Made by a program: the position numbers and the translations under genes | Shown: piece by piece, positions 12,412-64,000 of the stretch | Layout: each line of letters opens with the position of its first letter | How positions within the stretch are numbered: the first letter of the stretch is position 1 | Notes under the pieces: generated by a model | Told to the model about the DNA's origin: nothing | The model's database searches: none | The model's input: the letters and a program-made list of their open reading frames with translations, nothing else | NCBI GenBank assembly: GCA_964460485.1 | Contig: CAYWRY010000002.1 | Span: forward strand, 4,243-68,242 | DNA: 64,000 bases | Origin: an uncultured Spirochaetales bacterium | GTDB taxonomy: Bacteria > Myxococcota_A > UBA9160 > UBA6930 | Reading direction: 5' to 3'

Positions 12412-12520
12412 GGGAAGGCTCGTCGCGTGAGTCCGCAGCCGCAGCGCGCCCCCGGCCCCGCCGCGGCTGCTCGTGCCGGGTTCGCCCCCGCGCTCGTCGC
12501 GGGTGGGGAGGGCGCGGATC

Positions 12521-12541
12521 GGCGCGCCCTGCGGGCGCGCC
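12521..12541. terminator. GC hairpin downstream of hemB (GGCGCGCCC-TGC-GGGCGCGCC)
   Basis: Perfect 9-bp stem with a 3-nt loop, 110 nt after the hemB stop. There is no U-tail. Confidence 0.3.
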
Positions 12542-12639
12542 TCCCGCGCGCTTCGCGAGTTTCGCGGATGGGTGGATTGCGGCGGGTCGTGGCGTGGCGC
12601 GGCTCAGGCGGTGTGGTCGCTCAGACGAGAAGGTCGTTC

Positions 12640-12822
12640 ATGGCGAGCGCGTACAAGGTGGTGGAAACGAGCGACGTCACGGACGCTTCGCTCGAGAAGA
12701 TCCTGAACGAGTGGACGGCGCAGGGGTGGGGGTTCGAGTCGATCCACTTCGCGATGCGCGAGTCCTCGCGCCGGCCGTCGATGGCATTCGTGATGTTCGT
12801 GCGGGACGACGCCGCGGAGTAG
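12640..12822 (+). CDS. Small DUF4177-like protein
   Basis: The 60-aa product (YKVVE...LNEWTAQGWGFESI) resembles DUF4177. ATG at 12640 has GAAGG 6 nt upstream. The longer ORF 12427..12822 has a low-complexity N-terminus. Confidence 0.6.
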   Translation: MASAYKVVETSDVTDASLEKILNEWTAQGWGFESIHFAMRESSRRPSMAFVMFVRDDAAE

Positions 12823-12827
12823 CTCGC

Positions 12828-13811: not shown

Positions 13812-14188
13812 TCGCTCTCCGGCTTCTTCTTCTTGTTCTTCTCGTCCTCGACGAAACGGATGGTCGCGCTGACCTCGATCGTGCGGCCCTCGAGCAGCCG
13901 CTTCACCACCTCGACCGGATCCATCGCGGACAGCGCCTTGCCGAACTCGCGGGAGACGCGGTCGAGGAACTCGGCGCGCGTCTTCTCGCTCTGCGCGACG
14001 ACGAACTCGATCATCTCCCGCGGCGCCGTGTCTCCGAGGGCGCGGCGCAGGGCCTCCTCGGTCATGAAGAAGCCCGTGAGCCCGAGGCTCATCCCGCGGC
14101 GGAGCAGATCCGGCAGGAAGCCCGAACTCTCGTCGGAGCCGCCTTCCTTGCGTCCGGGGGCCCGCTTGCGCGGCTCGTCGCTCGCCAT
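13808..14188 (-). CDS. Hypothetical protein with Lys-rich acidic tail
   Basis: 126-aa ORF with coding-like composition, translationally coupled to the LLM gene. No family recognised. The C-terminus is EDEKNKKKKPESE. Confidence 0.55.
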   Translation of the reverse strand: MASDEPRKRAPGRKEGGSDESSGFLPDLLRRGMSLGLTGFFMTEEALRRALGDTAPREMIEFVVAQSEKTRAEFLDRVSREFGKALSAMDPVEVVKRLLEGRTIEVSATIRFVEDEKNKKKKPESE

Positions 14189-41128: not shown

Positions 41129-41715
41129 CGCTCGCCTCCTTCGCGGTCGTCGGCGTCGTCGTCCGCGCCGGCGGCCGGCAGCACGATCACCTTGCCGGTC
41201 ATCAGGTGGTGCCCGATTCCGCAGAACTCGTTGCAGATGATCGAGAACTCGCCGTGTGCGTTGGGCTTCACGCGCAGCGCGTAGTCGTACCCGGGCACGA
41301 CCTGGAAGTTCACGTTGACCGGGAAGAGGTGGAAGCCGTGGTTCACGTCGATCGAGGAGAGGTGCAGCGTGTACTCCGCCCCCTCGCGCAGCCGGAGGAT
41401 CGGCAGCCACGACCACATCGACGCCTGGAGGTAGACGTCGCTGCCCGGCGGCGGCTCGACCACCGGGAAGCCGTTCTCGTCACCCACCTGATGTGCGGCG
41501 ATGAACTCGGCGACGCGCGTCGCGTACGCGGCGGCCGTCACGCGATGGCGGATGCCCGACGGGTTCTGTCCGCCGCGCAGGTGCCAGAGCGGCATCATCG
41601 CGAACAGCACGAGACACCACGCGAAGGCGATCGCGACCCACACCTTCTCGCTGCCGTGGACCGGCTTCCACCAGATCCGTTCCGGCGCTTCGATTCCCGA
41701 GTGGTACACGCGCAC
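41125..41715 (-). CDS. Heme-copper oxidoreductase subunit II with a complete CuA site
   Basis: One TM segment plus a cupredoxin domain. CuA ligands are present in SIDVNHGFH and CNEFCGIGHHLM (C-x3-C-x3-H-x2-M). It aligns to ba3 CbaB. Confidence 0.9.
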   Translation of the reverse strand: MRVYHSGIEAPERIWWKPVHGSEKVWVAIAFAWCLVLFAMMPLWHLRGGQNPSGIRHRVTAAAYATRVAEFIAAHQVGDENGFPVVEPPPGSDVYLQASMWSWLPILRLREGAEYTLHLSSIDVNHGFHLFPVNVNFQVVPGYDYALRVKPNAHGEFSIICNEFCGIGHHLMTGKVIVLPAAGADDDADDREGGER

Positions 41716-41724
41716 TCCTCCGAG

Positions 41725-41889
41725 TCAGGGCAGCGGCGCGTCGCCCAGCGACGCGAGCTCGAGCAGCCCCCAGCCCGTGTAGAAGACGAACATCACGACC
41801 AGGCAGGCGGCGAGGAGCAGGAACGGCCGATCGAAGAGCCGCTGGCCGAGCGGCACCTCGTCGCCTGCGCGCTGCGGGGATTCCGTCAT
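41725..41889 (-). CDS. Small single-TM peptide, possible subunit IIa analogue
   Basis: 54-aa ORF at the 3' end of shadow ORF 41725..43587. AGGAGG lies 4-9 nt upstream of the ATG. One TM segment (FLLLAACLVVMFVFYTGWGLL). It lies 9 nt upstream of subunit II. Confidence 0.55.
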   Translation of the reverse strand: MTESPQRAGDEVPLGQRLFDRPFLLLAACLVVMFVFYTGWGLLELASLGDAPLP

Positions 41890-42027
41890 GTGAGCCTCCT
41901 TCGCGCCCGGCCCCGGACGCCGCACACACTGCTGCGGTGCAAGCGGTGCGCCGATCTCGACAGGGAACGGCGCCTGCAAAGACGGAGGCGGCCGAGCGCC
42001 CTCGTTGCCCGCCAACTGCGAGACTTC

Positions 42028-43731
42028 ATGACGGAAAGCCGAGATCGAACGGCGCCGAGCGGCGGCGCGCGCGAGCCGCTCGAGAAGGGCGGCGGGCGCG
42101 GGCCTGCGCCAAGCGGCCCCAGCGTGGTGCGTCTCGCCTCGTCCGATTCGTCGACGGCCGCGCGCCTTCCGGGGCTTCGCGCAGCGGCGCTGAAGCCGCT
42201 CGCCGCGGCGGACGCGGCCCTCACACGCCTGCTCGGCTGGGAGGCGAACCCGCTCCACCAGACGGGCGCCGTCGCCGCCCTCGCGTTCCTGGTCATGCTC
42301 GCGAGCGGCCTCTACCTGCTGCTGCTCTACCGGGTCGGCGCGCCGTACGAGTCCATGCAGGCGATCCAGGCACAGGCGCTCGCGGGCCGCTGGCTGCGCG
42401 CACTGCATCGCTACGCCGCCGACGCCGCGGTGATCGCGGTGGCGCTGCACGTCTTCCGGATGTGGGCGCAGGGACGGAGCTGGGGCCCGCGCTCGCTCGC
42501 TTGGCTCTCGGGCCTCGTGCTCGCGGGACTGCTCTTCCTGAGCGGCTGGACCGGCTACGTGATGGTGTGGGACGAGCACGCGCTGGTGCTCGCGCGCGAG
42601 GGCGCACGGCTGCTCGACGCGCTGCCCTTCTTCGCCGAGCCGCTCGCGCGCACCTTCTCGGGCGAGCGCGCGATGCCGAGCGCCTTCTTCTTCTTGAACC
42701 TGTTCGCGCACGTCGCGGTGCCCGTCGGCATGGCGGCGCTCCTGCTCGTGCACGTCGCGCGCATCGCGCGCCCGCAGCTCCTGCCGCCGTGCAAGCTCGC
42801 GCTCGGCTTCATGCTCGCGCTCGCCGCGCTCTCGGTGGTGCTGCCGGCGCCGCTGCCGCCGCGTGCCGATCCGCTCGCGCTGCCGCGCGAAGTGCCGCTC
42901 GACCTCTTCTACGCGTTCTGGCTCCCGGTCACGCGGGCGCTCCCGCCGATCGGCGCCTGGGGCGTGCTCGTCGCGCTCACGCTGGCGGCCGCGAGCGCGC
43001 CGTGGTGGACGCGGCCGCGGCGCGCCGCGCGTGCGGCGCCTTCCACCGTCGACCCCGAGCTGTGCACGGGCTGCGAGCAGTGCTCGCTGGACTGCCCCTT
43101 CGACGCGATCGCGATGGTGACGCGCGCCGCTCCGCGAGACGCCGCGGCCGCCGGCCGCTCGGAGCGGCACGCCCTGGTGAACGCCGAGCGCTGCGTCTCG
43201 TGCGGAGTGTGCGCGGGCTCTTGTGCGCCGATGGCGATCGGGCCGCCCGGGCGCGCGGGGCGCGACCAGCTCGCGGCGGCCCGCGCGTTCGTCGCGAAGG
43301 CGGAGCTCGCTCACCCCGACGTGGTCGTGATCGCCTGCCGGAACGGCGGCGGCGCGAGGGAAGCCGCCGGGGCGCAGCAGTTCGCCGTCGACTGCGCCGG
43401 CGCGCTGCACAGCTCGGTGGTCGAGCTGTTCCTGCGCAGCGGCGCCGGCGGCGTGCTGGTGGCCGCCTGCTCGCCGCGCGACTGCCGCGCGCGCGAAGGG
43501 CCCAAATGGCTCGGCGAGCGGCTCTTCCAGGAGCGCGAGGCGGAGCTGCACGCGCGCGTCGATCGCACGCGCGTGCGCGTCGTCCACGCGGGCGCGGGTG
43601 AGCGCGCTGCCTTCGCCGCCGCGCTCGCCGACTTCCGCCGCGAGATCGCGGTGCGCGGGCGCAGCGAGGTGGAGCCGCCGGCGCCGCTCGAGCCGGAGTG
43701 CGCCGCGAGCGCGCAGGGAGCCCAGCGATGA
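42028..43731 (+). CDS. Fusion protein: di-heme cytochrome b (N-terminal type) + 2x[4Fe-4S] ferredoxin + MvhD/FlpD-like Fe-S domain
   Basis: Two H-x13-H pairs (LHRYAADAAVIAVALH; AHVAVPVGMAALLLVH) lie in TM helices. CTGCEQCSLDCP and CVSCGVCAGSCAP are cluster motifs. The C-terminal four-Cys pattern (IAC...VDCAG...GVLVAACSPRDC) resembles the hydrogenase delta subunit. The start is uncertain, because ATG 42028 has no clear RBS. Confidence 0.8.
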   Translation: MTESRDRTAPSGGAREPLEKGGGRGPAPSGPSVVRLASSDSSTAARLPGLRAAALKPLAAADAALTRLLGWEANPLHQTGAVAALAFLVMLASGLYLLLLYRVGAPYESMQAIQAQALAGRWLRALHRYAADAAVIAVALHVFRMWAQGRSWGPRSLAWLSGLVLAGLLFLSGWTGYVMVWDEHALVLAREGARLLDALPFFAEPLARTFSGERAMPSAFFFLNLFAHVAVPVGMAALLLVHVARIARPQLLPPCKLALGFMLALAALSVVLPAPLPPRADPLALPREVPLDLFYAFWLPVTRALPPIGAWGVLVALTLAAASAPWWTRPRRAARAAPSTVDPELCTGCEQCSLDCPFDAIAMVTRAAPRDAAAAGRSERHALVNAERCVSCGVCAGSCAPMAIGPPGRAGRDQLAAARAFVAKAELAHPDVVVIACRNGGGAREAAGAQQFAVDCAGALHSSVVELFLRSGAGGVLVAACSPRDCRAREGPKWLGERLFQEREAELHARVDRTRVRVVHAGAGERAAFAAALADFRREIAVRGRSEVEPPAPLEPECAASAQGAQR

Positions 43732-48819: not shown

Positions 48820-51216
48820 ATGCCGATGCCGCTGGCGAGCTTGCGCGTCCTGGACCTCAGCAGCGAGATCGCGGGCCCCTACGCGACGAAGCTGCTGCGC
48901 GACGCCGGCGCGCGAGTGATCAAGCTGGAAGACACCGCGGCGCCCGACCCCCTGCGGCGCTGGAGCGCGTCGCACACCCCGGTTCCTCCCGAAGAGGACG
49001 GGGCGCTGTTTCGCTTCCTGAACGGGGGCAAGCAGAGCGTCGCCGTGGCGCTCGCGAGCGAGTCGGGCCGCGCTCGCCTGCGCGAGCTCGCGGACACCGC
49101 CGACGTGCTCGTGGAGTCGCGCGGCCCTGGCGGCCTTCTCGCCTTCGGCGGGGCCGACGCGCTGCGCTCCGCAAACCCGCACCTCGCCGTCGTCTCGCTC
49201 TCGCCGTGGGGGCTCGAGGGGCCGTGGGCGCGGCGGCCCGCCACCGAGATGACGCAGCAGGCGGCGAGCGGAGCGACCGGCTACCGCGGCCTTCCCGAGC
49301 GCGGGCCGGTCGGCGCAGGCGGGCGGATCGGCGAGTGGATGGCAGGGCCCTTCGTCGCGCTCGGCGCGCTGCTCGCCTGGCTCCACGCGCGCGCCACGGG
49401 CCGCGGCCAGCACGTGGATGTGTCGCAGTTCGAGTGCACGCTCGCGTCGCTCACCACGCTGCACGACCTCCAGGGCCAGCTCCTGGGCATCCCGTCCGCG
49501 ATCTCCATCGACACGCCGTCGATCGAGCCCGCCCTGGACGGCTGGGTGGGACTCACGGCCTACACGGGGCAGCAGTGGAAGGACTTCTGCCTGCTGATCG
49601 GGCGCCCCGAGCTCGGCGAGGACGAGCGCTTCTACGAGGCGCGCGTGCGCATGCACCACCTCGCGTTCGTGCAGCAGGCCATGCACGCGTTCACGAAGCA
49701 GCGCACCGTGGACGAGATCATCCAGCTCGCCGGCGATCTGCGCATTCCGGCGGCGCCGATCGGCGACGGGAAGCGCGTGCTCGAGTTCGACCACCTGCGC
49801 GAGCGCGGCGTGTTCGTGCGCTCGCCCCACGGCGACTTCACGCAGCCGCGCGTGCCGTATCGCCTTTCCGCCTGCGCGCCGCCGCCCTTCGAGCGCGCGG
49901 CGCGCCTCGGCGAGCACACGGCCAGCGCGCGCTTCGACGCCCACGCGCCCGCACCGCCGCCGAGCTGGCGCGCCTCCGCCGCGCGCGGCGAGGCGCCGCT
50001 GGCGGGCCTGCGCATCGTCGACCTCACCGCGTTTTGGGCGGGCCCGATCGTCACGAGCGCGCTGGCCGACCTCGGCGCCGACGTGGTCAAGGTCGAATCC
50101 ATCCAGCGGCCCGACGGCATGCGCTTCGCGGGCGCGGTGCGCAAGGACCCGCTCTGGGAGCGCTCGGCGGTTTTCCACGGCGTGAACTGCAACAAGCGCG
50201 GCATCACGCTCGATCTCGACGCGCCGGAAGGCCGCGAGCTGCTGCTGCGCCTCGTCGACACGGGAGACGTGCTGATCGAGAACTTCTCGGCGCGCGTGAT
50301 GGATCACTTTGGGCTCGGCTGGCAGACGCTGCATGCGCGCAACCCGCGCCTGGTGATGACGCGCATGCCCGCCTGGGGTCTGGACGGCCCCTGGCGCGAC
50401 CGCGTGGGCTTCGCGCCAAACGTCGAGCAGGTGAGCGGGCTCGCCTGGCTGACCGGTTACGAGGATCTTCCGCTCGTGGTGCGCGGCGCGTGCGATCCCT
50501 TCGGCGGCATGCACGCCGCCTTCGCGACGCTGCTCGCGCTGCTGCAGCGCGACGAGACGGGCGAAGGCCAGCTCGTCGAGCTGCCGCTGGTCGAGCCGGC
50601 GCTGAACGCAGCGGCGGAGCAGGTGATCGAATGGACGAAGAACGGCGCGCTGCTGCCGCGCCTCGGAAACCGCGGACCCTACGCCGCGCCGCAGGGGGTG
50701 TATCGCTGCGCGAAGGACGCGCGCGGCGACGAGTGGCTTGCGCTCGCGGTGGCGACGGACGCGCAGTGGGACGGGCTGCGGCGCGCGCTCGGCGAGCCGG
50801 CCGCGCTGGGCGCCGACGCGCTTTGCAGCGCCGCGGGCCGGCGCGCCGCGCACGACGAGATCGACGCGCAGATCCGCGCGTGGTGCGCCGCGCGCGCCTG
50901 CGCCGACGCGGAGGCCGCGCTGCTCGCCGCCGGCGTGCCCGCCGCGGCCTGCGTCGACGCGCACCGCGTGCTGCCGAATCCGCAGCTCGAGGCGCGCGCG
51001 GCGTACACCACGCTCCTGCACCCGGTGACCGGCGCGACACGCTACCCCGAGCTGCCGATGCGCTTCTCCGCGCTGCCGCGCCCGCTGCGCCTCACGCCGC
51101 CGCCGACCCTCGGCCAGCACAACGACGAGGTGCTCGGGGAGCTCGGGCTGTCGGCGGCGGAGATCGCCGCGCTGCGCGCGAAGAAGGTGATCGGCGAGAG
51201 GCCGGCGTGGATGTGA
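48820..51216 (+). CDS. Tandem-fused family III (CaiB/BaiF) CoA-transferase, two complete domains
   Basis: The N-terminal signature occurs twice: LRVLDLSSEIAGPYATKLLRDAGARVIKLE near aa 8 and LRIVDLTAFWAGPIVTSALADLGADVVKVE near aa 395. Confidence 0.85.
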   Translation: MPMPLASLRVLDLSSEIAGPYATKLLRDAGARVIKLEDTAAPDPLRRWSASHTPVPPEEDGALFRFLNGGKQSVAVALASESGRARLRELADTADVLVESRGPGGLLAFGGADALRSANPHLAVVSLSPWGLEGPWARRPATEMTQQAASGATGYRGLPERGPVGAGGRIGEWMAGPFVALGALLAWLHARATGRGQHVDVSQFECTLASLTTLHDLQGQLLGIPSAISIDTPSIEPALDGWVGLTAYTGQQWKDFCLLIGRPELGEDERFYEARVRMHHLAFVQQAMHAFTKQRTVDEIIQLAGDLRIPAAPIGDGKRVLEFDHLRERGVFVRSPHGDFTQPRVPYRLSACAPPPFERAARLGEHTASARFDAHAPAPPPSWRASAARGEAPLAGLRIVDLTAFWAGPIVTSALADLGADVVKVESIQRPDGMRFAGAVRKDPLWERSAVFHGVNCNKRGITLDLDAPEGRELLLRLVDTGDVLIENFSARVMDHFGLGWQTLHARNPRLVMTRMPAWGLDGPWRDRVGFAPNVEQVSGLAWLTGYEDLPLVVRGACDPFGGMHAAFATLLALLQRDETGEGQLVELPLVEPALNAAAEQVIEWTKNGALLPRLGNRGPYAAPQGVYRCAKDARGDEWLALAVATDAQWDGLRRALGEPAALGADALCSAAGRRAAHDEIDAQIRAWCAARACADAEAALLAAGVPAAACVDAHRVLPNPQLEARAAYTTLLHPVTGATRYPELPMRFSALPRPLRLTPPPTLGQHNDEVLGELGLSAAEIAALRAKKVIGERPAWM

Positions 51217-53178: not shown

Positions 53179-54300
53179 TCACCTCGCGGGGTCGAGCACT
53201 TCCTTGAAGCCGTACCGAACGTGCGGCCCGATCGCGATCTGCTCCAGCACGCCGATCCCGCGCTGGTTCCCCATGCGGACCTTCATCACCTGCTGGATGT
53301 GCTGGTTCTCCATCGCCATCTCGTTCACGTCGGCGAGCCGCCAGCTCTCGCCGGCGATCGCGAGCTCGCCCTTCCAGCGTCCATGCCCCCACTCGGGATG
53401 CGAGTAGCCGATGCCCTTCATGCGGAACGCGAGGGTGGGCTCCATGGCGATCTCGAGCCGCTCGCCGTTCTGCTTGTGCAGCGTGAGCTCCGCGCCGCCG
53501 GCACGGCGCGTGCCCGGCACGTAGACGAGCCGGTGCTCGGCGCCAGCGAGTAGCTCGGTTCCGGGATCCTCGACGCCGGGAATCTGCTTCGGGTCGTCGT
53601 AGACCGGGCAGATCATCCCGTCGAAGTGCCAGGGCTGGCCCCAGCGATCTTCGAACAGGCACATGTGCGTGCACTTGTCGGACCAGTGCAGGGGTGCCCA
53701 CAGGAAGAAGAACTGCGGCGGTGCCTGCGGCGGCGCGCCGGCCGGGTCGCCTTCACCCACCGGCCGGATGCCCCAGGAGCGGTCCTTCGTGCCGTAGTTG
53801 CGGCTCGGGTCCAGGCGCAGCGTCTTGCCCGCATAGCGCAGCTCGCCCTGCCAGCGGCCGAACTGATTGAAGCGCGTGGCGTCCATCAGCCCCTTGCCGC
53901 GCCCGTGGGTCTGGCGGCCCTCCTCGATGTTCGCGGTGCGCGGGATCCACAGCAGCTCGCCGCTGATGCCAGTGCTGTTGTCGTCGACGGTGACGCGCAG
54001 CGACATCATCGGCTCGAGGATCTCGATGCGGAACGGCCCGACGACCAGGTCGCTCGGCTCGCGCGGCGCGCGCCGCGAGGCGTGAAAGGCGTGCTGCTCG
54101 CCGTCGATGGCGAGCGAGACGCCGCAGTCCATGATGCCGAGGTTCGGGTAGACCGCGGCGCCGATGCCCAGATACCAGCTGCCGTCGTCGGCGTAGCCGT
54201 TGAACCAGTAGCGGTCGTAGGCGTTCCGGCTGGCGGTCGCGACGTGGAGGATCGGCTCGGGAGTCTGGTGAATCGGGAAGTCGTCGAAGCGGCTCAGCAT
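53179..54300 (-). CDS. Conserved hypothetical protein (373 aa, soluble, beta-rich)
   Basis: Clean ORF from the ATG at 54300 (MLSRFDDFPIHQTPEP...), with coding-like composition and a DRSWG motif. No family confidently recognised. Confidence 0.7.
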   Translation of the reverse strand: MLSRFDDFPIHQTPEPILHVATASRNAYDRYWFNGYADDGSWYLGIGAAVYPNLGIMDCGVSLAIDGEQHAFHASRRAPREPSDLVVGPFRIEILEPMMSLRVTVDDNSTGISGELLWIPRTANIEEGRQTHGRGKGLMDATRFNQFGRWQGELRYAGKTLRLDPSRNYGTKDRSWGIRPVGEGDPAGAPPQAPPQFFFLWAPLHWSDKCTHMCLFEDRWGQPWHFDGMICPVYDDPKQIPGVEDPGTELLAGAEHRLVYVPGTRRAGGAELTLHKQNGERLEIAMEPTLAFRMKGIGYSHPEWGHGRWKGELAIAGESWRLADVNEMAMENQHIQQVMKVRMGNQRGIGVLEQIAIGPHVRYGFKEVLDPAR

Positions 54301-54583: not shown

Positions 54584-55489
54584 ATGACCCAAAGCTGGAC
54601 GCGTCGCCGCTTCCTGCGCGCGAATCTCTCCGCCGGGGCCGCGCTCGCCACGGGCAGCTTGCTCGGTTGCGGAGCCGCCGAGCCGCGGGCGCCGCACGTG
54701 CCGCCGCTGCGGCTCTCCTACGCGGGCTTTGCGATGGGCATCCAGAGCTTCTCGCTGCGCCATTACACGCTCCCGGCTGCGCTCGAGATCGTGGCCGCCC
54801 TCGGGCTCTCGCGCGTCGAGCTGATCCCCGAGACGAAGCTCGGCCCGTTCGGCTTCGACGGGCACCTGCCGGTGGACGCGAGGCCCCGCGCCCTGGACGC
54901 GGCGCTCGCGGCGTGCAGCGAGCGAGGCATCTCGATCGCGGCGCACGGCGTGAACGCCGTGAGAGACGCGGAGGCTGCGCGCGCTCTCTTCGCATTCGCG
55001 CAGCGGGCGCGCGTGCCCGTGCTCACGATCATGCCGAGCGACGATGCGCTGCCGGAGCTGGACGCGCTGTGCGCGGCAAATCCCGGCGTGCGCCTCGCGA
55101 TCCACAATCACGGCCCGCACCTGCCCTGGGAGACGGTCGACGAGATCCTCGCGGCGCTGGGCGGGCGGCACCCGAGCTTCGGCGCGTGCGTCGACACCGG
55201 TCACTTCATCCGCAGCGGCATCGATCCCGCCGAGGCGATCCGGCGCTTCGGCGCGCGCGTGCACGGCGTCCACCTGAAGGACTTCGTCGCGGAGGGCACG
55301 CTCGCGGAGGGCTGCATCCTCGGCGACGGGAAGCTCGATCTCGGCGCGGTCTTCCTAGCGCTGCGCGAGATCGAGTTCGCGGGCGCGCTGTCGCTCGAGT
55401 ACGAGGAGAATCCCGAGAACGTCGTGCCCGACCTGTCCGCCTGTCTCGAGGCGGCGTCGGAGGCGGCGGAGCGCGTGGCGCGCGGCTGA
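54584..55489 (+). CDS. TAT-exported sugar-phosphate isomerase/epimerase (xylose-isomerase-like TIM barrel) lipoprotein
   Basis: Twin-arginine signal TRRRFLRANLSAGAALA with the lipobox LLGC. AP-endonuclease-2/TIM-barrel motifs (IHNHG, CVDTGHF, SLEYE). Confidence 0.8.
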   Translation: MTQSWTRRRFLRANLSAGAALATGSLLGCGAAEPRAPHVPPLRLSYAGFAMGIQSFSLRHYTLPAALEIVAALGLSRVELIPETKLGPFGFDGHLPVDARPRALDAALAACSERGISIAAHGVNAVRDAEAARALFAFAQRARVPVLTIMPSDDALPELDALCAANPGVRLAIHNHGPHLPWETVDEILAALGGRHPSFGACVDTGHFIRSGIDPAEAIRRFGARVHGVHLKDFVAEGTLAEGCILGDGKLDLGAVFLALREIEFAGALSLEYEENPENVVPDLSACLEAASEAAERVARG

Positions 55490-55557
55490 TCGCGCGGCGC
55501 GCAGGCCCGTGCGCTCGCGCGGACGCGCCGATCTCCACTTGCCGCGCAGCTCCGAGG

Positions 55558-56688
55558 TCAGCCCGCCTGGCGCGCCCGCCACTTCGCGAACGCGAGCCGT
55601 TGAGCGGCGAGCTGGTGAGCGCGCGCCGTGTCCTCGGCCTCGCGCGGGAAGGCCGCGAGGCCGAAGCTCACGCGCAGCGTGATCGGCTCGCGCAGGCCGT
55701 CGCGCCGCAGCTCGATCGTGTCGAGCTCGTCGCGCAGCCGCTCGAGCCGCCGCTCGACGCCGGGATGGTCGGCCCCGCGCAGCGCGATCGAGAACTCGTC
55801 GTCGCCGGAGCGCCCGATCAGATCGGTGGCGCGGAAGCGGTCGGCGAGCGCGCTCGCGAGCCAGCGCAAGAGCGCGTCGGCGAAGGCCACGCCGTGGGTG
55901 CCGCGGATCGCCGGCAGCGCGGTGAACTCGATCTTCGCGACCATCAGCGGCTCGGTCGCCGCGCTCGCCTGCTGCTGCGCGGCCGCGAGGCAGCGCTCGA
56001 AGGCGGCGGCGTGCAGCGCTCCGCTGGCGGTGTCGAGGATGGCGACGCGCTGTAGGCGCTGTCCGCGCAGCGCGGCGAGCGTGGCTGCGACGCTGGCCGC
56101 GCAGCCCGCGAGCAGCGACGGCGCCGCGGCGGCGAGCGAGCCGCGCTCCGTGCCCGAGGCGTGGAGCGCGGCCAGCGAAAGCGAGCCGACGATACCGGCG
56201 AGCGCACACAGACGCGGGTCGCCGCGCGCGGCGAGCACCGCCATGCCCACGGCGAAAGCGGCGAGGAAGTGACCCGGGCTGACGCGCAGCGCGTGCGGGC
56301 CGAGCAGCTCCCAGGCGACGCCGCTGAGCGCCGCCGCGTAGAACGCGCTCACCGCCAGCACGCCCAGCGGATTCGCGCGCGGATGCTGGATGGAGTCGAG
56401 GCGCGTCGCGATGCCGAGGCCGGAGATCAGCGAGAGCAGGATCGTCCACCTGCCGATCGCACCGCCGGGAATCCACACGAAAAAGAGCGGCAGCGTGAGC
56501 AGCGCGAAGGCGGCGACGTGCGTTCGCGTTCGGTCGGTGAACGCCGCTGCGAGCAGCGCGTCTTCCGGCGCGCCGAACACGAAACGCTTGAGAGACTGCT
56601 GCGCGCGCGCCCATAATGCGCGCGGCCGTTGCGCGATGGGCAGCCCGAAGTCCCAGGTCGGGAGTGAACGCTCCGCGCTCGCTGTCAT
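55558..56688 (-). CDS. Membrane-anchored GGDEF-domain protein with a degenerate active site (GDDEF)
   Basis: About 6 N-terminal TM helices are followed by a GGDEF fold (LMVAKIEFTAL...; RSGDDEFSIAL). ATG at 56688 within ORF 55558..56916. Confidence 0.8.
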   Translation of the reverse strand: MTASAERSLPTWDFGLPIAQRPRALWARAQQSLKRFVFGAPEDALLAAAFTDRTRTHVAAFALLTLPLFFVWIPGGAIGRWTILLSLISGLGIATRLDSIQHPRANPLGVLAVSAFYAAALSGVAWELLGPHALRVSPGHFLAAFAVGMAVLAARGDPRLCALAGIVGSLSLAALHASGTERGSLAAAAPSLLAGCAASVAATLAALRGQRLQRVAILDTASGALHAAAFERCLAAAQQQASAATEPLMVAKIEFTALPAIRGTHGVAFADALLRWLASALADRFRATDLIGRSGDDEFSIALRGADHPGVERRLERLRDELDTIELRRDGLREPITLRVSFGLAAFPREAEDTARAHQLAAQRLAFAKWRARQAG

Positions 56689-56744
56689 GCCCCGTTTTCG
56701 GCCAGGCCTCGCGACATCTAGAGGCCATTCGCCGGGAGGACGAG

Positions 56745-59018
56745 ATGAAGCGGATCGCGCTCGTGCTGTTCGTCGTGGGGGTCGCCGCTGGCGCGCTCGT
56801 GCTCGCCGCGGGCAGCGGATGGCTGGGACAGAGCGAGGCGCCCGGGACGCCGCGCGGCGCGGCGCGCAACCCGGCACGCGTCGCCGCGGAAGAGGCCCAG
56901 ATTGCCGCGACCGCAAGCGCTCTGGCGGTGCCCGAGCCGAAGCAGATCCTGTTCGGCGACCTCCACGTCCACACCACGTTCTCGTTCGACGCGTTCATGC
57001 TGAGCATGCCGGCGCTGGTGGGAGAGGGCGCTCATCCGCCCGCTGACGCCTGCGACTTCGCGCGGCACTGCTCGGCCCTCGACTTCTGGTCGATCAACGA
57101 CCACGCCGAGGGCCTCACCGCCCAGAACTGGATCGACACCGTGGCATCGATCCGCCAGTGCGACGCGATCGCGGGTGACGGTCCGCGCCCCGACAGCGTC
57201 GCGTTCCTCGGTTGGGAGTGGACGCAGATCGGCACCACGCCCGCCGATCACTACGGCCACAAGAACGTGGTGTTGCGCGGTCTCGCACCGGAAGAGGTGC
57301 CCGCCCGCCCGATCGCCGCGGGAGGGCGCACGCTCCAGATTCGAGCGAGCGGCGGGCCGAGCTTCCTCGCGCGCAGCGTCGCCGCGCTCGCCGGCGGGCA
57401 TCCGCGCTATCGCGACCTCGCGCGCTACTTCGCCGAGCGCGACCCCACGAAGTTCTGTCCCGACGGCGTCTCGACGCGCGAGCTGCCCGTGGACTGCCTC
57501 GAGGTGGCCGACACGCCGGCGGTGCTGTTCGACAAGCTCGACGAGTGGGGCATCCCTGCGCTGGTGATCCCGCACGGCACCACCTGGGGCTTCTACACGC
57601 CGCTCGGCTCCACCTGGGACAAGCAGCTCGCCGGGCGCATGCAGGACGACGAGCGCCAGACGCTGCTCGAGATCTTCTCGGGCCACGGCGACTCGGAGAA
57701 GTACCGCGACTTCCGCGACGTCGAATACGACTCGCAGGGCAAGCCGTCGTGTCCACCCGTGCAGCCCAACTACCTGCCGAGCTGCGTGCGCGCGGGAGAG
57801 ATCATCCGCGAGCGCTGTCTCGCGGAGGGAACGGACGCGGGCGAGTGCGACGCGCGCGCTGCGCAGACGCGACAGCTGTACGTCGAGGCCGGCATCGCCG
57901 GCCATCTCGTCGTCGACGGCGAGAGCGGCGCGGACTGGCTCGACGCCGGGCAATGCCGCGACTGCGACCAGCCCGCCTTCAACTACCGGCCCGGCGGCGC
58001 CGCCCAGTACATCGCCGCGCTCGGCAACTTCGACGAGGACGCGTCGCGCCCGCGCCGCTTCCGCTTCGGCTTCCTGGCGGCGAGCGACAACCACTTCGCG
58101 CGGCCGGGCACGGGGTTCAAGCAGAAGAGCCGGCGCGGCAATACCGAGTCGAACGGCGAGCCCGTGGGCGGCATCCTCGCCACGCAGATGGCTGCGGAGG
58201 CGCGCCCGCCCGCCTCGCAGCCGCGGCCCTTCGTTGCTGGCGACTACTCCGGCTTCCAGCTCACCGAGGGCGAGCGGCAGGCCTCGTTCTTCATGATGGG
58301 CGGTCTCACGGCGGTGCACGCCGCCGGCCGCGATCGCGCCGCGGTGTGGGACGCCCTCCAGCGCCGCGAGGTCTACGGCACGACGGGGCAGCGCACGCTG
58401 CTCTGGTTCGAGCTCCTGAACGCGCCGGGCGGCCCGGCGCCGATGGGCGCGCAGGCGACCCTCGGGGAGGCGCCCGTGTTCCGCGTGCGCGCCGCAGGTG
58501 CGCTCGAGCAGAAGCCGGGCTGCCCGGAGGAGTCGACCACGGCGCTGGGCCAGGACGGCGTCGAGCGATTGTGCAAGGGCGAGTGCCACAACCCGGGCGA
58601 CGCGCGGCGCCCGATCACGCGCATCGAGGTCGTGCGCATCCGTCCCCAACAAGCGCCGGGCGAGCCGATCGCGAAGCTGATCGACGATCCGTTCCTCGTG
58701 CTGCCGTGCTCGGGCGATCCCGCCGGCTGCAGCGTGGAGTTCACGGACCCCGAGTTCCCCACGCTCGGGCGCGAGGTGCTCTATTACGCGCGCGCCTACG
58801 AGGCGCCGGACCAGGCGATCAACGCCGGCGGCATCCGCTGTGAGCGCGACGAGGCGGGCAACTGCATCCAGGCGCAGCTCTGCCCGGGGCCCGACGGCGC
58901 CGCCGACGACTGCCTCGCGCCGCGCGAGCCGCGGGCGTGGTCGTCGCCGATCTACGTGAGCTGGGCGGCGGTCGCGGAGGGGCAAGCGACCGCGGTCGCG
59001 CAGCGCCAGCGCGAGTGA
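56745..59018 (+). CDS. DUF3604-family protein (PHP-like metal-dependent hydrolase fold), membrane-anchored/exported, paralog 1
   Basis: N-terminal TM anchor. ILFGDLHVHTTFSFDA and FLGWEWTQ motifs are characteristic of DUF3604. Multiple conserved Cys pairs. ATG at 56745 follows GGGAGGA. Confidence 0.8.
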   Translation: MKRIALVLFVVGVAAGALVLAAGSGWLGQSEAPGTPRGAARNPARVAAEEAQIAATASALAVPEPKQILFGDLHVHTTFSFDAFMLSMPALVGEGAHPPADACDFARHCSALDFWSINDHAEGLTAQNWIDTVASIRQCDAIAGDGPRPDSVAFLGWEWTQIGTTPADHYGHKNVVLRGLAPEEVPARPIAAGGRTLQIRASGGPSFLARSVAALAGGHPRYRDLARYFAERDPTKFCPDGVSTRELPVDCLEVADTPAVLFDKLDEWGIPALVIPHGTTWGFYTPLGSTWDKQLAGRMQDDERQTLLEIFSGHGDSEKYRDFRDVEYDSQGKPSCPPVQPNYLPSCVRAGEIIRERCLAEGTDAGECDARAAQTRQLYVEAGIAGHLVVDGESGADWLDAGQCRDCDQPAFNYRPGGAAQYIAALGNFDEDASRPRRFRFGFLAASDNHFARPGTGFKQKSRRGNTESNGEPVGGILATQMAAEARPPASQPRPFVAGDYSGFQLTEGERQASFFMMGGLTAVHAAGRDRAAVWDALQRREVYGTTGQRTLLWFELLNAPGGPAPMGAQATLGEAPVFRVRAAGALEQKPGCPEESTTALGQDGVERLCKGECHNPGDARRPITRIEVVRIRPQQAPGEPIAKLIDDPFLVLPCSGDPAGCSVEFTDPEFPTLGREVLYYARAYEAPDQAINAGGIRCERDEAGNCIQAQLCPGPDGAADDCLAPREPRAWSSPIYVSWAAVAEGQATAVAQRQRE

Positions 59019-59151
59019 CGCCCAGTCAACCCGGATCCCGAACGAATTCCCTCTTTCGCCCGCAAGTGACTGCGTACACAATGCCGCGCCCTGTTGGGGC
59101 TCGCGGCTCGCACGCGCGCTCCGAGCTGGTGCCGCTCACAAGGAGACAGGA

Positions 59152-61854
59152 ATGCTCGCGCCCGCCCCCGCCGTGCGTCTCGCACGCACGCTCGCGCTCT
59201 CGCTCGCGCTCGCCACGCCGCTCTACGCCCAGGAGACCGAGCCCGCTCCCGCCGAGGAGACGGCTCCTGCCGAAGAGCTGGCGCCTGCGGAGGAGGCCGC
59301 GCCCGACTACGGCGTCGAAGAGATCACGATCACCGCGACCAAGCGCGCGCAGAACATCCAGGACGTGCCGATCGCGGTCACCGCGATCACGGCGGAGGGC
59401 CTCGCCGCGCGCGGCATCACGGACGTGAAGGACCTCCAGCAGGCTGCGCCGAGCCTCGTGATCACGGACTCGAACAGCACCACCAACGGCGGCGTGATCC
59501 GCATCCGCGGCATGGGCACCTCGGGCAACAACCCGGGCCTCGAATCCGCGGTCGGCTCGTTCATCGACGGCGTGTTCCGCGCGCGCGCCGGCCTCGCGCT
59601 CCAAGATCTAGTGGACGTGGATCGCGTCGAGGTGCTGCGCGGTCCCCAGGGCACGCTGTTCGGCAAGAACACGTCGGCCGGCCTGATCCACATCATCACG
59701 AAGCAGCCGGAGTTCGAGTGGAGCGGCCACGTGCAGGGCTCCGTCGGCAACTTCGACCTGCGCAAGGTGCAGGGCAGCATCACCGGGCCGCTCCTCGAGG
59801 AGAAGCTCGCCTTCCGCCTGGCGGGCCTGCTCCACGTGCGCGACGGCTACTACGACGACATCGACACCGACGACACCTTCGCCGACCGCGATCGCTGGGC
59901 GCTGAAGGGCCAGCTGCTCTGGGCGCCCACCGACGCGCTCGACTTCCGCCTGATCGGCGACTTCACCAAGATGCGCGAGCACTGCTGCCCGGCCACCTAC
60001 TCGGTGGTCGGCCGCAACGCGCGCCACATCGTCTCGCCCACGCTCGGCGGCCAGATCTTCGGGAACTCGGACGAGGCCGCGGTGCAGGCGCTGCTGAACA
60101 GCGGCGGCTTCACGACGAACGAGTACCGCAACGACGACAACCTCAAGGTCGGCACGAACCACGACCCGACCGAACAGGTCGACGACTGGGGCGTCTCGCT
60201 GGAGGGGAGCTGGGACCTCGACCTGGTCCAGGTGAAGGGCATCCTCGCGCACCGCGAGACGGACATCTTCCGCGCCCAGGACATCGACTTCACGAACGTC
60301 GACATCCTGATGCCCGGCGACACCGACGAGAAGTGGGAGACCTGGAGCCTCGAGCTCCAGCTCTCGGGCGTCGTCGAGTCGCTCGACCTCGACTGGCTGT
60401 TCGGCTTCTACGGCTCGACCGAGGACCTCGCGAACAGCTTCCAGGTGCTGATCGGCACGCAGGGGCCGCAGTACATCGGGCTGCTCGTGCAGCAGGCCAC
60501 GAACTCGGTGCCGATCGGCAACGCGTTCCAAGGCGTGTTCAACCCGGGCGAGGGCCGCGTGACCGCCTTCACGCAGGACAACAAGGGCTACTCGTTCTTC
60601 ACCCACAACATCTTCCACGTCACCGAGCGCTTCGACTTCACGATCGGCGCGCGTTACAGCTGGGAGCGCAAGGAGGCCACGGCGCTGCACGCCGGGACGA
60701 CCTTCGGGCAGATCTTCCGCTCGCCGTTCTGCGATCCGATGACGGGCTGGACTTCGCCGCCACTCACGCCCGGGCAGGCCGGAATTCGCAACGCCGTGGG
60801 TCTCAACCTGCGCACCACCGTCAGCAACACCTGCGACAACTTCAGCTGGAAGGGCGCCTACGACCGCGACGAGTGGAGCGGCACGATGCAGCTCGGCTAC
60901 GCGATCACCGACGAGATCAACGCCTACCTGAGCGCGTCGCGCGGGTTCAAGTCCGGCGGCTTCAATCTAGACCCGGACTCCTTCAACTGCATTCCGTCGG
61001 GGCTCGCCACCGGCGCGCAGCCGAACCCCGGCGACGTGCTGTCCGGAACCATCTGGTGCACGCCGGACAACAAGACGCAATTCGCGCCGGAGTTCACGAA
61101 CGCCTACGAGCTCGGCGTGAAGTCGACGTGGTTCGACGGCCGGCTGGTGGCGAACCTGGCGGTCTTCCACACCGACTTCAAGGACTTCCAGCTCAACACG
61201 TTCACCGGCCTGGGCTTCATCATCACGAACGTGCCGAAGGTGGAGTCGGACGGCGCCGAGCTCGAGCTCACCGCCTTCCCGTTCGACGGCATGATCGCCA
61301 ACCTGTCGATCACCTACGCCGACACGCGCTATGGCCACGACGACATCTGCTTCCAGCTGAATCGACCGGACCTCTCGGTGAACCGCTGCGCGGGCCAGCA
61401 GAACGCGGTGAGCGGGTGCGAGGACGACCCGCCGCTCGGCACCACGGTGCCGCCCTGCATCTCCTTCCCGCGCAACCAGATCGCGAACGGCCATCGCATG
61501 ACCCAGTCGCCCGCTTGGACGGGCAGCCTGCAGCTCTCGCTCAATCGCCCGCTCTTCGATACGGGCTGGTCCTGGTACGTCGGCGGGAACGTCTACTACC
61601 GCGGTCGCCACAAGACATCGTCTGATCTCGACGAGCTGAAGGCCGAGGACGCGCACTGGAAGCTGAACGTGCAGGCGGGCTTCCGCTCGCCGGGCGATCG
61701 CCTCGACATCCAGGCGTGGGTGAACAACGCGACCGACGAGATCGTGACGACGGCCAACTTCGACACGGTCTTCCAGGCCGGCAGCTTCAGCGCCTTCAAG
61801 CAGTCGCCGCGCATGTACGGCGTGACCGCGACCTACCATTTCGGCGAGTACTGA
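59152..61854 (+). CDS. TonB-dependent outer-membrane receptor
   Basis: Signal peptide, plug domain (EEITITATKRAQNIQDVPIAV, RVEVLRGPQGTLFGKNTSAG), and a long beta-barrel with an aromatic C-terminus. RBS is AAGGAGA. Confidence 0.9.
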   Translation: MLAPAPAVRLARTLALSLALATPLYAQETEPAPAEETAPAEELAPAEEAAPDYGVEEITITATKRAQNIQDVPIAVTAITAEGLAARGITDVKDLQQAAPSLVITDSNSTTNGGVIRIRGMGTSGNNPGLESAVGSFIDGVFRARAGLALQDLVDVDRVEVLRGPQGTLFGKNTSAGLIHIITKQPEFEWSGHVQGSVGNFDLRKVQGSITGPLLEEKLAFRLAGLLHVRDGYYDDIDTDDTFADRDRWALKGQLLWAPTDALDFRLIGDFTKMREHCCPATYSVVGRNARHIVSPTLGGQIFGNSDEAAVQALLNSGGFTTNEYRNDDNLKVGTNHDPTEQVDDWGVSLEGSWDLDLVQVKGILAHRETDIFRAQDIDFTNVDILMPGDTDEKWETWSLELQLSGVVESLDLDWLFGFYGSTEDLANSFQVLIGTQGPQYIGLLVQQATNSVPIGNAFQGVFNPGEGRVTAFTQDNKGYSFFTHNIFHVTERFDFTIGARYSWERKEATALHAGTTFGQIFRSPFCDPMTGWTSPPLTPGQAGIRNAVGLNLRTTVSNTCDNFSWKGAYDRDEWSGTMQLGYAITDEINAYLSASRGFKSGGFNLDPDSFNCIPSGLATGAQPNPGDVLSGTIWCTPDNKTQFAPEFTNAYELGVKSTWFDGRLVANLAVFHTDFKDFQLNTFTGLGFIITNVPKVESDGAELELTAFPFDGMIANLSITYADTRYGHDDICFQLNRPDLSVNRCAGQQNAVSGCEDDPPLGTTVPPCISFPRNQIANGHRMTQSPAWTGSLQLSLNRPLFDTGWSWYVGGNVYYRGRHKTSSDLDELKAEDAHWKLNVQAGFRSPGDRLDIQAWVNNATDEIVTTANFDTVFQAGSFSAFKQSPRMYGVTATYHFGEY

Positions 61855-61873
61855 TCGCCGCGTTCGCCTAGCC

Positions 61874-61906
61874 TGAGGCCGGCGCGCTCCCGGGAGCCGC
61901 CGGCCT
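61874..61906. terminator. Terminator-like hairpin after the receptor gene (GAGGCCGGCG-N13-CGCCGGCCTC)
   Basis: Perfect 10-bp stem, 20 nt after the stop at 61854. Confidence 0.5.
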
Positions 61907-62008
61907 CTCGCATTCTGCGCGCACGGTCGCGGATTCGGCCGCAGTGCGCGTGTTTCGCGGCGAAAAACGCGCGCGGACGTGGCACGCTCGGCTGCGCGAG
62001 GAGTGCGC

Positions 62009-64000
62009 ATGAGAAAGGTGGCGATCGCGTTCGGCGTGCTCGGGCTCGCCGCGGTGGTCGGCGCCGTCGTCGTGCGCGAGGCCGGCCTCGGCCGCTTCGG
62101 CGCGCACGAGGAGCCCGGCGTGCCGCGCAAGACGCCGCGCGCCGTCTCGGCGCCGCCCGCGCAGGGCGGCAAGCAGATCCTGTTCGGCGACCTGCACGTG
62201 CACACCACCTTCTCCGACGACGCGTTCAGCTTCAGCCTGCCGATGCTGGGCGGCGAGGGCGCGCACCCGCCGGCGGACGCCTGCGACTTCGCGCGCTTCT
62301 GCTCGGCGCTCGACTTCTGGTCGATCAACGACCATGCGGAGCGCCTGACCCCGCAGCACTGGAACGAGATCGTGAGCTCGGTCCGCCAGTGCAACGACGT
62401 GATCGCCGATCCCGCGAACCCCGACGCCGTCGCGTTCCTCGGCTGGGAGTGGACGCAGATGGGCGACACGCCCGACAACCACTATGGCCACAAGAACGTG
62501 GTGCTCGCCCACACCGACGACGCGCGCATTCCCGCGCGGCCCATCGGCGCCGCGCGGCCCGCTTCGCGAGAGCTCGTCTCCGCGCCGGTGATCGCGCGCG
62601 GCATCGCCGCGCTCAGCGAGGGCGGCCGCTTCCACGACTTCGCGCGCTATCAGGCCGAGGTCGACGCGACGGCCGTCTGCCCGAGCGGCAAGCCCGTGCG
62701 CGAGCTGCCCGCCGACTGCATCGAGCTGGCGGCCACTCCCGCCGAGCTGTTCGCGAAGCTCGACGACTGGGGCCACGACGCGATCGTGATCCCGCACGGC
62801 ACGAGCTGGGGCATGTACACGCCGCCGGGCTCGAAGTGGGACAAGCAGCTCGCCGGCGCGCAGCACGACGAGCGGCGCCAGTCGCTGATCGAGGTGTTCT
62901 CCGGCCACGGCGACTCCGAGGTCTATCGCGACTGGAAGGAGATCGACTGGGACGCGGAGGGGAAGCCCGTGTGCCCGACCGCGCGGCCCGACTACCTGCC
63001 ATCGTGCTGGCGTGCGGGCGAGATCATCCGCGCCCGCTGCGCCGCAGTGGGCGAGGGCGCCGCGGAGTGCGAGAAGCGCGCGGTGGAAGCGCGCGCGCGC
63101 TTCGTCGCCGCGGGGCTCTCGGGCCATCTCACGGTGCCCGGCGCGACGGCGGAGGACTGGCTCGACGCGGGGCAGTGCCGCGACTGCCGCACGCCCGCTT
63201 TCAACTACCGCCCGCGCAGCTCGACGCAGTACATCCTCGCGCTGGGCAACTGGCACGGCGGCGCCGCGCGCCGCTTTCGGCTCGGCCTGATCGCTGCCAG
63301 CGACAATCACTTCGCGCGCCCGGGCACCGGTTACAAGCCGATCCGCCTCGGCCACAGCGAGGCGATGAACGGCGCCGCGCGCCCGCTCGGCGACGGGCTC
63401 GTGGGCCGCTCGATGGCCCCGCCCCCGACCGAACCGCAGCCGAGGTCGGTGCCCTTCGACCCGACCGGCCTGAGCGGCTTTCAGCTGTTCGAGACCGAGC
63501 GCCAGCAGTCCTACCTGACGACCGGCGGCCTCACGGCCGTGCACGCCGAGAGCCGGGACCGGGACGCCATCTGGCGCGCGCTCGGGCGGCGCGAGGTGTA
63601 CGGCACGAGCGGGCACCGCATGCAGCTCTGGTTCGACCTGGTGAACCCGCCAGGCGCGGCGCCGGGCACGGTCGCTCCAATGGGCAGCGAGGTCGCGCTC
63701 GCGGGCGAGCCGATCTTCCGCGTGCGCGCGCTCGGCTCCTTCGAGCAGCAGCCCGGCTGCCCGCACGAGAGCGTCGACGCGCTCGGCCCCGCCGACGTGG
63801 CGCGCTTGTGTCGCGGCGAGTGCCACAACCCGAGCGACGTGCGCCGGCCGATCGCGCGCCTCGAGATCGTGCGCATCCGCCCGCAGCGCGAGCCCGACGA
63901 GCCGGTGGCCCCGCTGATCCAGGATCCGTGGCTCACGATCGCCTGCGCGCCGAGCGCCGCGGGCTGCGAGGCGACGGTCAGCGACCCGGAGTTCGCCCTG
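62009..64000 (+). CDS. DUF3604-family protein, paralog 2 (3' end outside window)
   Basis: Not in the supplied ORF track because it has no stop inside the window. My own translation from ATG 62009 (after GAGGAG) gives MRKVAIAFGVLGL...KQILFGDLHVHTTFSDDA...FLGWEWTQMGDTPDNHYGHKNVV... This is co-linear with 56745..59018 and stays open to position 64000. Confidence 0.85.
   Translation, partial: MRKVAIAFGVLGLAAVVGAVVVREAGLGRFGAHEEPGVPRKTPRAVSAPPAQGGKQILFGDLHVHTTFSDDAFSFSLPMLGGEGAHPPADACDFARFCSALDFWSINDHAERLTPQHWNEIVSSVRQCNDVIADPANPDAVAFLGWEWTQMGDTPDNHYGHKNVVLAHTDDARIPARPIGAARPASRELVSAPVIARGIAALSEGGRFHDFARYQAEVDATAVCPSGKPVRELPADCIELAATPAELFAKLDDWGHDAIVIPHGTSWGMYTPPGSKWDKQLAGAQHDERRQSLIEVFSGHGDSEVYRDWKEIDWDAEGKPVCPTARPDYLPSCWRAGEIIRARCAAVGEGAAECEKRAVEARARFVAAGLSGHLTVPGATAEDWLDAGQCRDCRTPAFNYRPRSSTQYILALGNWHGGAARRFRLGLIAASDNHFARPGTGYKPIRLGHSEAMNGAARPLGDGLVGRSMAPPPTEPQPRSVPFDPTGLSGFQLFETERQQSYLTTGGLTAVHAESRDRDAIWRALGRREVYGTSGHRMQLWFDLVNPPGAAPGTVAPMGSEVALAGEPIFRVRALGSFEQQPGCPHESVDALGPADVARLCRGECHNPSDVRRPIARLEIVRIRPQREPDEPVAPLIQDPWLTIACAPSAAGCEATVSDPEFAL

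Follow-up and report, generated by a model that had tools for sequence, protein, structure and literature searches.

Classical enzymes of the PHP superfamily are cytoplasmic. Among described exported enzymes, two are close to the system considered here. The carbaryl hydrolase McbA of Pseudomonas sp. C5pp is a periplasmic metallohydrolase of ~72 kDa with an N-terminal transmembrane (TM) domain and signal region, and the same operon encodes the outer-membrane uptake protein McbT (PMC11302072). Sb-PDE of Sphingobium sp. TCM1 is a secreted PHP-domain phosphodiesterase that is inhibited by dithiothreitol, and this inhibition by a thiol reductant suggests an essential disulfide (PMC5460133). The locus analyzed here lies at the end of a 64,000-nucleotide stretch (the window; contig CAYWRY010000002.1, positions 4,243 to 68,242) from an uncultured Spirochaetales bacterium placed by GTDB in Myxococcota_A, and it encodes a TonB-dependent receptor (TBDR) between two paralogous proteins of the family DUF3604, here called P1 and P2. 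The first-pass annotation, made from the letters alone, had described DUF3604 as lacking an assigned function, in agreement with the literature searched, where the family is named only incidentally, in the table of one paper; searches for PF12228, HupE_UreJ_2 and PF13795 returned none.

The available data are tentatively compatible with a model, to which we give a probability of about 0.4, in which P1, P2 and the TBDR form an import-and-hydrolysis unit that arose as a lineage-specific elaboration of an older tandem DUF3604 pair. Specifically, P1 and P2 would be inner-membrane-anchored, periplasm-facing enzymes with one TM helix, about ten disulfides and a much-expanded PHP-like barrel that carries a His/Asp/Glu metal site and is followed by a beta-sandwich. 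The TBDR gene would have been inserted between the two paralogs in one clade, probably of Myxococcota. An organic substrate in esterified form would pass the outer membrane through the receptor, and P1 and/or P2, on the periplasmic side of the inner membrane, would then cleave an ester-type bond in it (a phospho-, sulfo-, carbamate or carboxyl ester). The product would then be processed by an enoyl-CoA hydratase (ECH), a DoxX protein, a short-chain dehydrogenase/reductase (SDR) and a KstD/ChcC-like flavoprotein. Such a periplasmic ester hydrolase fed by a TBDR is plausible, if unproven. The sequence data themselves show the structure of the genes, their paralogy, the conserved residues, the anchor with its Cys pattern and the distribution of the linkage; periplasmic location, dependence on metal, hydrolase chemistry, co-transcription and a functional link to the receptor are inferred.

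The comparison with the described systems is one of manner rather than membership. McbA/CehA work as proposed here for P1 and P2, which are nevertheless not members of that family: against the NCBIfam model for CehA/McbA metallohydrolases (NF038032, cut-off 80 bits), P2 scores 16.8 bits (E 0.0035, residues 60-169) and P1 does not match. In addition, McbT is a small FadL-like barrel, whereas the importer in the window is a TBDR. Sb-PDE, at 441 aa, differs in that its Sec signal peptide is cleaved, its Cys number two and it matches PF02811 clearly; it has no DUF3604 match, and no TBDR context was reported for it. Unlike the classical cytoplasmic PHP enzymes, P1 and P2 are predicted to be exported and disulfide-rich.

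The window has a G+C content of ~72% and carries long spurious open reading frames (ORFs) in all frames, from which G+C by codon position singles out three genuine plus-strand genes:

56745-59018, plus strand: P1, 757 aa; Pfam DUF3604 match of 65.1 bits; the exact protein occurs on six JGI metagenome contigs
59152-61854, plus strand: TBDR, 900 aa; Plug and barrel domains (Pfam)
62009-64000 and on past the window end, plus strand: P2, 663 aa visible; Pfam DUF3604 match of 72.4 bits

Both flanking proteins, as well as all 64 aligned homologs, score above the gathering threshold of Pfam DUF3604 (PF12228, 20.4 bits); the match is partial and falls into two segments, the better of which spans positions 322-411 of the 591 in the profile. 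P1 and P2 are thereby new members of an already named, uncharacterized family, and NCBI calls their close homologs 'DUF3604 domain-containing protein'. Unlike the canonical DUF3604 branch of 600-690 aa, theirs is divergent and longer (~750 aa), with a TM anchor and 20 invariant Cys. A DUF3604 search returned 1,560 clusters at 50% identity (E<=1e-3) and more than 6,000 close homologs, and the family is often met in Myxococcota, Binatia and Woeseiaceae from marine and sediment sources.

The paralogy read from the letters is borne out by these scores and by an identity of 56-58% overall (58% over 658 aa by BLASTP). The N-terminal regions, judged ~70% identical by eye, measure 73% over residues 66-180 at the protein level and 69% at the nucleotide level. 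A 20-mer quoted as shared by the two genes is found at 56943 and 62174, 1-2 nt from where it had been placed, and 0 of 100 shuffles gave such a pair. Each protein has a single strong hydrophobic segment, residues 4-22 (mean Kyte-Doolittle 2.7-2.8), with Lys/Arg ahead of it, and all four motifs quoted earlier were found (GDLHVHT, FLGWEWTQ, ADACDFAR.CSALDFW and GQCRDC..PAFNYRP), with His, Glu and Cys residues that are invariant in 64 homologs of 55-100% identity. P1 and P2 contain exactly 20 Cys each, mostly in close pairs, and all 20 are invariant in the same alignment. So are H74, H76, D82, H120, E158, H172, H277, H314, D448 and H450, such that an accurate alignment retains the candidate metal ligands. 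When homologs as distant as 33% identity are included, most of the invariant His/Asp/Glu/Cys positions remain at least 90% conserved. From this pattern we infer that the hydrophobic segment is a signal anchor of N-in, C-out orientation and that the rest of the protein lies in the periplasm, bonded by disulfides; the 20 invariant Cys are consistent with an exported, disulfide-bonded protein, as the first-pass annotation had supposed.

Four of the invariant Cys lie in P1 residues 336-368 (window 57750-57848) in a Cx10C...Cx9C pattern, within a predicted helical hairpin inside the catalytic domain. The only sequence matches of the family profiles in the PDB were CHCH-domain proteins (mS37/CHCHD1), at a non-significant E of 0.1-0.8.

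P2 was missing from the ORF list supplied with the window, since it runs off the window end, and an antisense ORF at 61868-63826 was listed in its place. The antisense frame has a G+C of 0.94 at first and 0.72 at third codon positions (GC1 and GC3), mirroring the P2 sense frame with its GC3 of 0.96, and is therefore a shadow ORF, as had been proposed. Similar antisense shadows lie over the DUF3604 genes in 78 of 80 related loci. The complete gene was recovered from the JGI metagenome contig Ga0484859_0000089 (163 kb, the longest of the six with exact P1), whose alignment to the window shows 4 differences in 17,256 bases. There, P2 is intact, with 748 aa and no decay by stop or frameshift, and its stop overlaps the start of the ECH gene; this copy rules out P2 as a pseudogene. 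P2 is real and intact, and the annotation of the window is corrected.

In structural comparison, PHP proteins rank first for P1, at a weak level. The AlphaFold2 model of P1 (pLDDT 87.6, pTM 0.90) begins with a helix, continues into a large alpha/beta domain and ends in a beta-sandwich, giving a predicted layout of a TM anchor at ~4-22, a PHP-like catalytic domain of ~500 aa with insertions and a beta-sandwich at ~560-745. In a Foldseek search of the PDB, the full model has as its top match 3e38, a PHP protein with beta-sandwich (E 2.4e-3, probability 0.98), alongside PHP domains of Pol III alpha. A model of residues 60-560 alone is of lower quality (pLDDT 78) and gives equally weak matches, headed by 2hnh at E 2.5e-3. 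For both models the TM-scores of the PHP matches, normalized to the target, are at most 0.40, and none reaches E<=1e-3. PHP enzymes thus top the list when predicted structures are compared, as the first-pass annotation had suggested they should be, at E-values and TM-scores that leave the relationship weak.

At the sequence level, the HxH motif of PHP motifs I-II is present as GDLHVHT, with H74, H76, D82 and H120 invariant. An hhalign comparison of the broad alignment with E. coli YcdX (the query being identical to 1m65_A) pairs these four residues with the YcdX metal ligands H7/H9/H15/H40 over 46 columns at E 0.013. E158, H172/H277, H314, D448 and H450 follow in the order expected for a nine-ligand PHP site, an order known from YcdX and HPP structures, and are candidate ligands only. 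Compared with PHP proteins such as YcdX (1m65), Pol III alpha (2hnh) and BVU_3505 (3e38), P1 and P2 have DLHVHT...D...DH motifs that align with YcdX, candidate E, H, H and D-x-H residues later in order, and a predicted order of barrel and then beta-sandwich like that of 3e38. Unlike PHP domains, their catalytic region is about twice the size, with large insertions that include the Cx10C/Cx9C hairpin. Sequence searches of the PDB with P1 and two profiles found no PHP protein or other enzyme, and phmmer with YcdX matched none of the ORFs of the loci. PHP-derived hydrolases are the best reading of these data, one that is weakly supported, remote and not established. The ligand motif of PHP-type phosphoesterases noted in the first pass is present, and the assignment itself is plausible, if distant.

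The central gene encodes a receptor with a signal peptide (MLAP...PLYA|QETEP), an acidic Pro-rich linker, a TonB-box-like EEITITA, a Plug domain (PF07715, 59.4 bits) and a barrel of the 22-strand type (PF00593, 127.8 bits), both domains scoring above their cut-offs. All NCBIfam models of siderophore, haem or B12 receptors remain below cut-off, the best being TIGR01783 with 153.7 against 223.5 bits. Orthologs are found at 57-75% identity. One of them, 65% identical, lies in a cluster with a second TBDR, ECH, CoA-transferase, amidohydrolases and a Rieske oxygenase, and without DUF3604. Relatives at 38-44% identity sit among genes for ECH, SDR, CoA-transferase, thiolase/ChsH2, acyl-CoA synthetase and ExbBD-TonB. 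Judging from these gene neighborhoods, the subfamily is otherwise found in clusters for CoA-dependent catabolism of organic substrates. The possibility that the TBDR is a recent foreign insert was ruled out, as its GC3 of 0.95 matches that of its neighbors; its lower overall G+C reflects amino-acid composition.

To what extent the arrangement is conserved was assessed with one genome per GTDB species, which gave 79 loci with DUF3604 relatives 49-81% identical to P1, and 80 loci and 1.35 Mb in total. The genomes are labeled Myxococcota, Binatia, Woeseiaceae, Nevskiales and others. Two TBDR profiles, one of them deliberately diverse, gave the same result: a TBDR lies within 10 kb of DUF3604 at 8 of the 80 loci. 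Four of these (L001, L004, L005 and L006) are orthologous sandwiches, with TBDRs 61-69% identical to that of the window. The remaining four TBDRs (L027, L034, L035 and L082) have 700-800 aa and belong to unrelated subfamilies that, where alignable, reach at most ~30% identity over short segments, mainly in the plug. A look-up of close homologs added a further sandwich locus, L083/84. At another, L092, gene calling splits the TBDR (11403-14060) into ORFs of 127 aa and 715 aa, although tblastn aligns it to the window's receptor in a single frame (11532-14051); faulty calling, faulty sequencing or incipient decay may be the cause. L087 has the order P1-TBDR-ECH-DoxX-FAD without P2. Among loci with a P1 ortholog at 74-82% identity, 7 of 8 keep the TBDR. 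A tblastn search of 72,556 plasmids with P1 gave no match.

Tandem pairs or triples of DUF3604 genes without a TBDR occur at L008, L011, L038 and L093. The last of these carries three tandem DUF3604 genes (5457-11636), of which the first is P1-like (65%), the second P2-like (63%) and the third cut by the contig end, and shows that the family expands by local duplication. In a neighbor-joining tree of the DUF3604 copies, built without bootstrap support, one L093 copy is the sister of the P1 clade and another that of the P2 clade; L091 falls within the sandwich clade, and L087 pairs with L001 as its sister. A tandem DUF3604 pair appears to be the ancestral arrangement. The simplest history that the tree and the gene orders suggest would be an old tandem duplication, followed by one TBDR insertion in the ancestor of the clade and subsequently by losses, at least one of the TBDR and one of P2. 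On the loci surveyed, the sandwich is confined to one narrow clade, probably of Myxococcota, and is not a signature of the DUF3604 family; being confined to one small clade, it therefore says little about the function of the family.

The observations of the first-pass annotation are borne out wherever a check was possible, its interpretation in part. The "conserved sandwich" does not hold up in its general form, given that only half of the eight TBDR loci are orthologous, that one close relative lacks the TBDR and another P2, and that a TBDR ortholog exists without DUF3604. Linkage of DUF3604 to TBDRs in other genomes is real among near orthologs; in the 76 other loci surveyed it comes down to four unrelated TBDRs. 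The same division applies to the proposed substrate-uptake and periplasmic-hydrolysis system, which has clade-level linkage on its side and no such linkage in the other loci surveyed.

These distributions raise the question whether the adjacency is incidental, a TBDR having landed between tandem DUF3604 genes while P1 and P2 act in the envelope in a capacity that has nothing to do with import. This would accommodate the tandem pairs that do without a TBDR (those named above as well as L091), the 65%-identical ortholog in a cluster that lacks DUF3604, the lack of TBDR enrichment in the other 76 loci and a hairpin past the TBDR stop codon. It fits poorly with a receptor that is kept between the paralogs in six lineages (proteins 61-81% identical) and beside P1 in a seventh, on the same strand, with short gaps and no predicted plus-strand terminator. 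Weighing both sides, incidental adjacency seems somewhat unlikely.

The three genes share one strand, with intergenic gaps of 133 bp and 154 bp, and each has a candidate ribosome-binding site: GGGAGG 6 nt upstream of the P1 ATG, AAGGAG at the TBDR start and GAGGAG before the P2 start codon at 62009. Further features of the region are:

55558-56688, minus strand: GGDEF gene, divergent from P1, with 56 bp between the two start codons
56588-56617 (L001 9844-9873), plus strand: sigma-70-like promoter match TTGAGA-18-CATAAT, a consensus match only
61875-61907, plus strand: GC-rich hairpin with a 10+4 bp stem, 20 nt past the TBDR stop codon, without a T tract

The promoter match lies within the 5' end of the divergent GGDEF gene, ~130 bp upstream of the P1 start. 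A scan for plus-strand terminators predicted none and left the hairpin uncalled, and an Rfam search at E<=1 over 55000-64000 found no riboswitch or other RNA element, including no cobalamin riboswitch upstream of the TBDR. The shared strand, the short gaps and the lack of a predicted plus-strand terminator are compatible with a single operon. The 71-nt region of the hairpin has a folding energy of -39.4 kcal/mol (z = -2.67), and the element may be a terminator, an attenuator or an mRNA-stabilizing structure; such a stable hairpin may leave room for separate regulation of the TBDR and P2.

Downstream of P2, as read from Ga0484859_0000089, follow ECH, DoxX, SDR and a 483-aa FAD-binding protein. 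The last scores 602 bits against NCBIfam PRK07121 (cut-off 481) and is related to the KstD and ChcC desaturases. A haloacid dehalogenase (HAD) hydrolase and a luciferase-like monooxygenase are encoded on the opposite strand. Upstream of P1 lie the divergent GGDEF gene, a xylose-isomerase-like TIM-barrel protein, an Rv3169-family protein, an AraC regulator, a glyoxalase, a cupin, a double CoA-transferase III and an SDR. The window holds no further DUF3604, TBDR, peptidyl-prolyl isomerase (PPIase) or HupE-like genes.

Several of these neighbors recur in relatives or are unusual in themselves. The double CoA-transferase (48820-51216, plus strand) has 798 aa and two CoA-transferase family III domains, and the same gene lies upstream in relatives (L092 1360-3786). 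The Rv3169-family gene (53179-54300, minus strand; 373 aa) has no Pfam domain and matches the NCBIfam Rv3169 model with 369.6 bits (cut-off 150); it adjoins the AraC regulator in relatives too. Farther upstream, an 889-aa ORF (41062-43731, plus strand) combines cytochrome b, 4Fe-4S ferredoxin and FlpD (hydrogenase delta subunit-like) in an unusual fusion. This ORF is delimited stop to stop and may merge adjacent genes.

The neighborhood bears on a second alternative, in which DUF3604 proteins are periplasmic phosphoesterases for phosphorus scavenging from nucleotides, phosphodiesters or organophosphates and the TBDR imports the substrate, in the manner of phytase/phosphatase and TBDR pairs. 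The PHP-like motif set would suit this role; the exported PHP enzyme Sb-PDE is a phosphodiesterase (PMC5460133), and HAD phosphatase genes lie nearby, joined in relatives by sulfatase/phosphodiesterase-like genes. Against it, no pst, pho or phn genes occur within 10 kb on the window's contig or in the relatives examined, the neighbors are CoA-thioester and redox catabolic genes, and the PHP-related CehA/McbA family hydrolyzes non-phosphate esters. Phosphorus scavenging is, on balance, distinctly unlikely.

Across the subfamily, the partners of DUF3604 are of another kind. When all ORFs of the 80 loci were clustered, the commonest neighbors that are not shadows proved to be a SurA-like PPIase (Rotamase_2 and SurA_N domains; 17 of 80 loci) and a HupE_UreJ_2 membrane protein (19 of 80), often packed tightly against DUF3604 in either gene order. 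No other gene linkage in the subfamily is as strong as this trio, which occurs in Woeseiaceae, Binatia and Gammaproteobacteria:

L036 4386-8836; L040 2-4282; L072 817-4858; L079 9983-14351: DUF3604-PPIase-HupE_UreJ_2 trio
L069 8051-12190; L070 7934-12283; L074 7725-12097: DUF3604-PPIase-HupE_UreJ_2 trio

As judged from this linkage, the PPIase and HupE_UreJ_2 proteins may constitute a maturation or metal-supply system for DUF3604. Scattered neighbors of lower frequency include acyl-CoA dehydrogenases, CoA-transferases, luciferase-like monooxygenases, P450s and aldehyde and pyrroloquinoline quinone (PQQ) dehydrogenases. In the window's clade (64255 onward in window numbering; L001 17508-21129) the DUF3604 pair is followed by DoxX, as it is at the more distant tandem-pair loci L008 (5012-5473) and L011 (12418-13110). 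Its match to an HvfX-like NCBIfam model is below threshold (55.7 bits against 80), and a link to thiol/disulfide or quinone chemistry of the 20-Cys proteins is conceivable.

In a third alternative, DUF3604 would not be hydrolytic at all, and would instead form a metal- or redox-center module (a sensor, store or oxidoreductase) matured by the PPIase, HupE-like and DoxX proteins. The frequency of the first two (17-19 of 80 loci), the position of DoxX after the pair in the window's clade, the weak similarity to PHP enzymes and a C-terminal domain that resembles lytic polysaccharide monooxygenase- or immunoglobulin-like sandwiches all point in this direction. The order and spacing of the conserved residues nevertheless fit the ligand pattern of PHP hydrolases, and the paired Cys are typical of structural disulfides, not of clusters, so that a non-hydrolytic module seems very unlikely.

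A bolder proposal joins the partners to the hydrolase reading. The ~750-aa DUF3604 branch would represent an unrecognized class of ten-disulfide, PHP-derived metallohydrolases, tethered to the inner membrane and facing the periplasm, with a dedicated PPIase and HupE/UreJ-like pair for maturation or metal supply across the subfamily, which in this clade would form a two-paralog unit, possibly a heterodimer, with a captured TBDR as the front end of alicyclic or lipid-type CoA-dependent catabolism. This is a speculation that we consider unlikely to hold in full.

Several observations weigh against the import-and-hydrolysis unit as the preferred reading. Outside the clade, 4 TBDRs in 76 loci and 1.28 Mb amount to ~1 per 320 kb, which, by our own expectation, looks like ordinary genomic density; none of the four is related to the window's receptor, and linkage of importer and hydrolase was accordingly not found among these 76 loci beyond close relatives. 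The receptor is dispensable: in L091, which is 79-81% identical and syntenic on both sides, P1 adjoins P2 without a TBDR, and a search of the gap between them for the scar of a TBDR deletion found no remnant. The hairpin past the TBDR stop may split transcription of the TBDR from that of P2. PPIase and HupE_UreJ_2, the commonest partners of the subfamily, are absent from the window's locus, and we suspect that catabolic neighbors such as acyl-CoA dehydrogenases, luciferase-like monooxygenases, CoA-transferases and P450s may be merely abundant and carry little information on the substrate. Finally, the PHP relationship reaches E<=1e-3 by no method, and Pfam PHP (PF02811) matches none of the 64 homologs at E<=5.

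Taken together, these findings provide starting points for the biochemistry of DUF3604, whose longer branch has the look of a membrane-anchored enzyme that is exported, rich in disulfides and furnished with PHP-like metal ligands. They indicate that the recurrent partners of this branch are a PPIase and a HupE/UreJ-like protein, not a TBDR, and they caution that the sandwich is clade-specific and no family signature. Within that frame, one clade appears to have added a TBDR to its tandem DUF3604 pair, beside genes of CoA-dependent catabolism.

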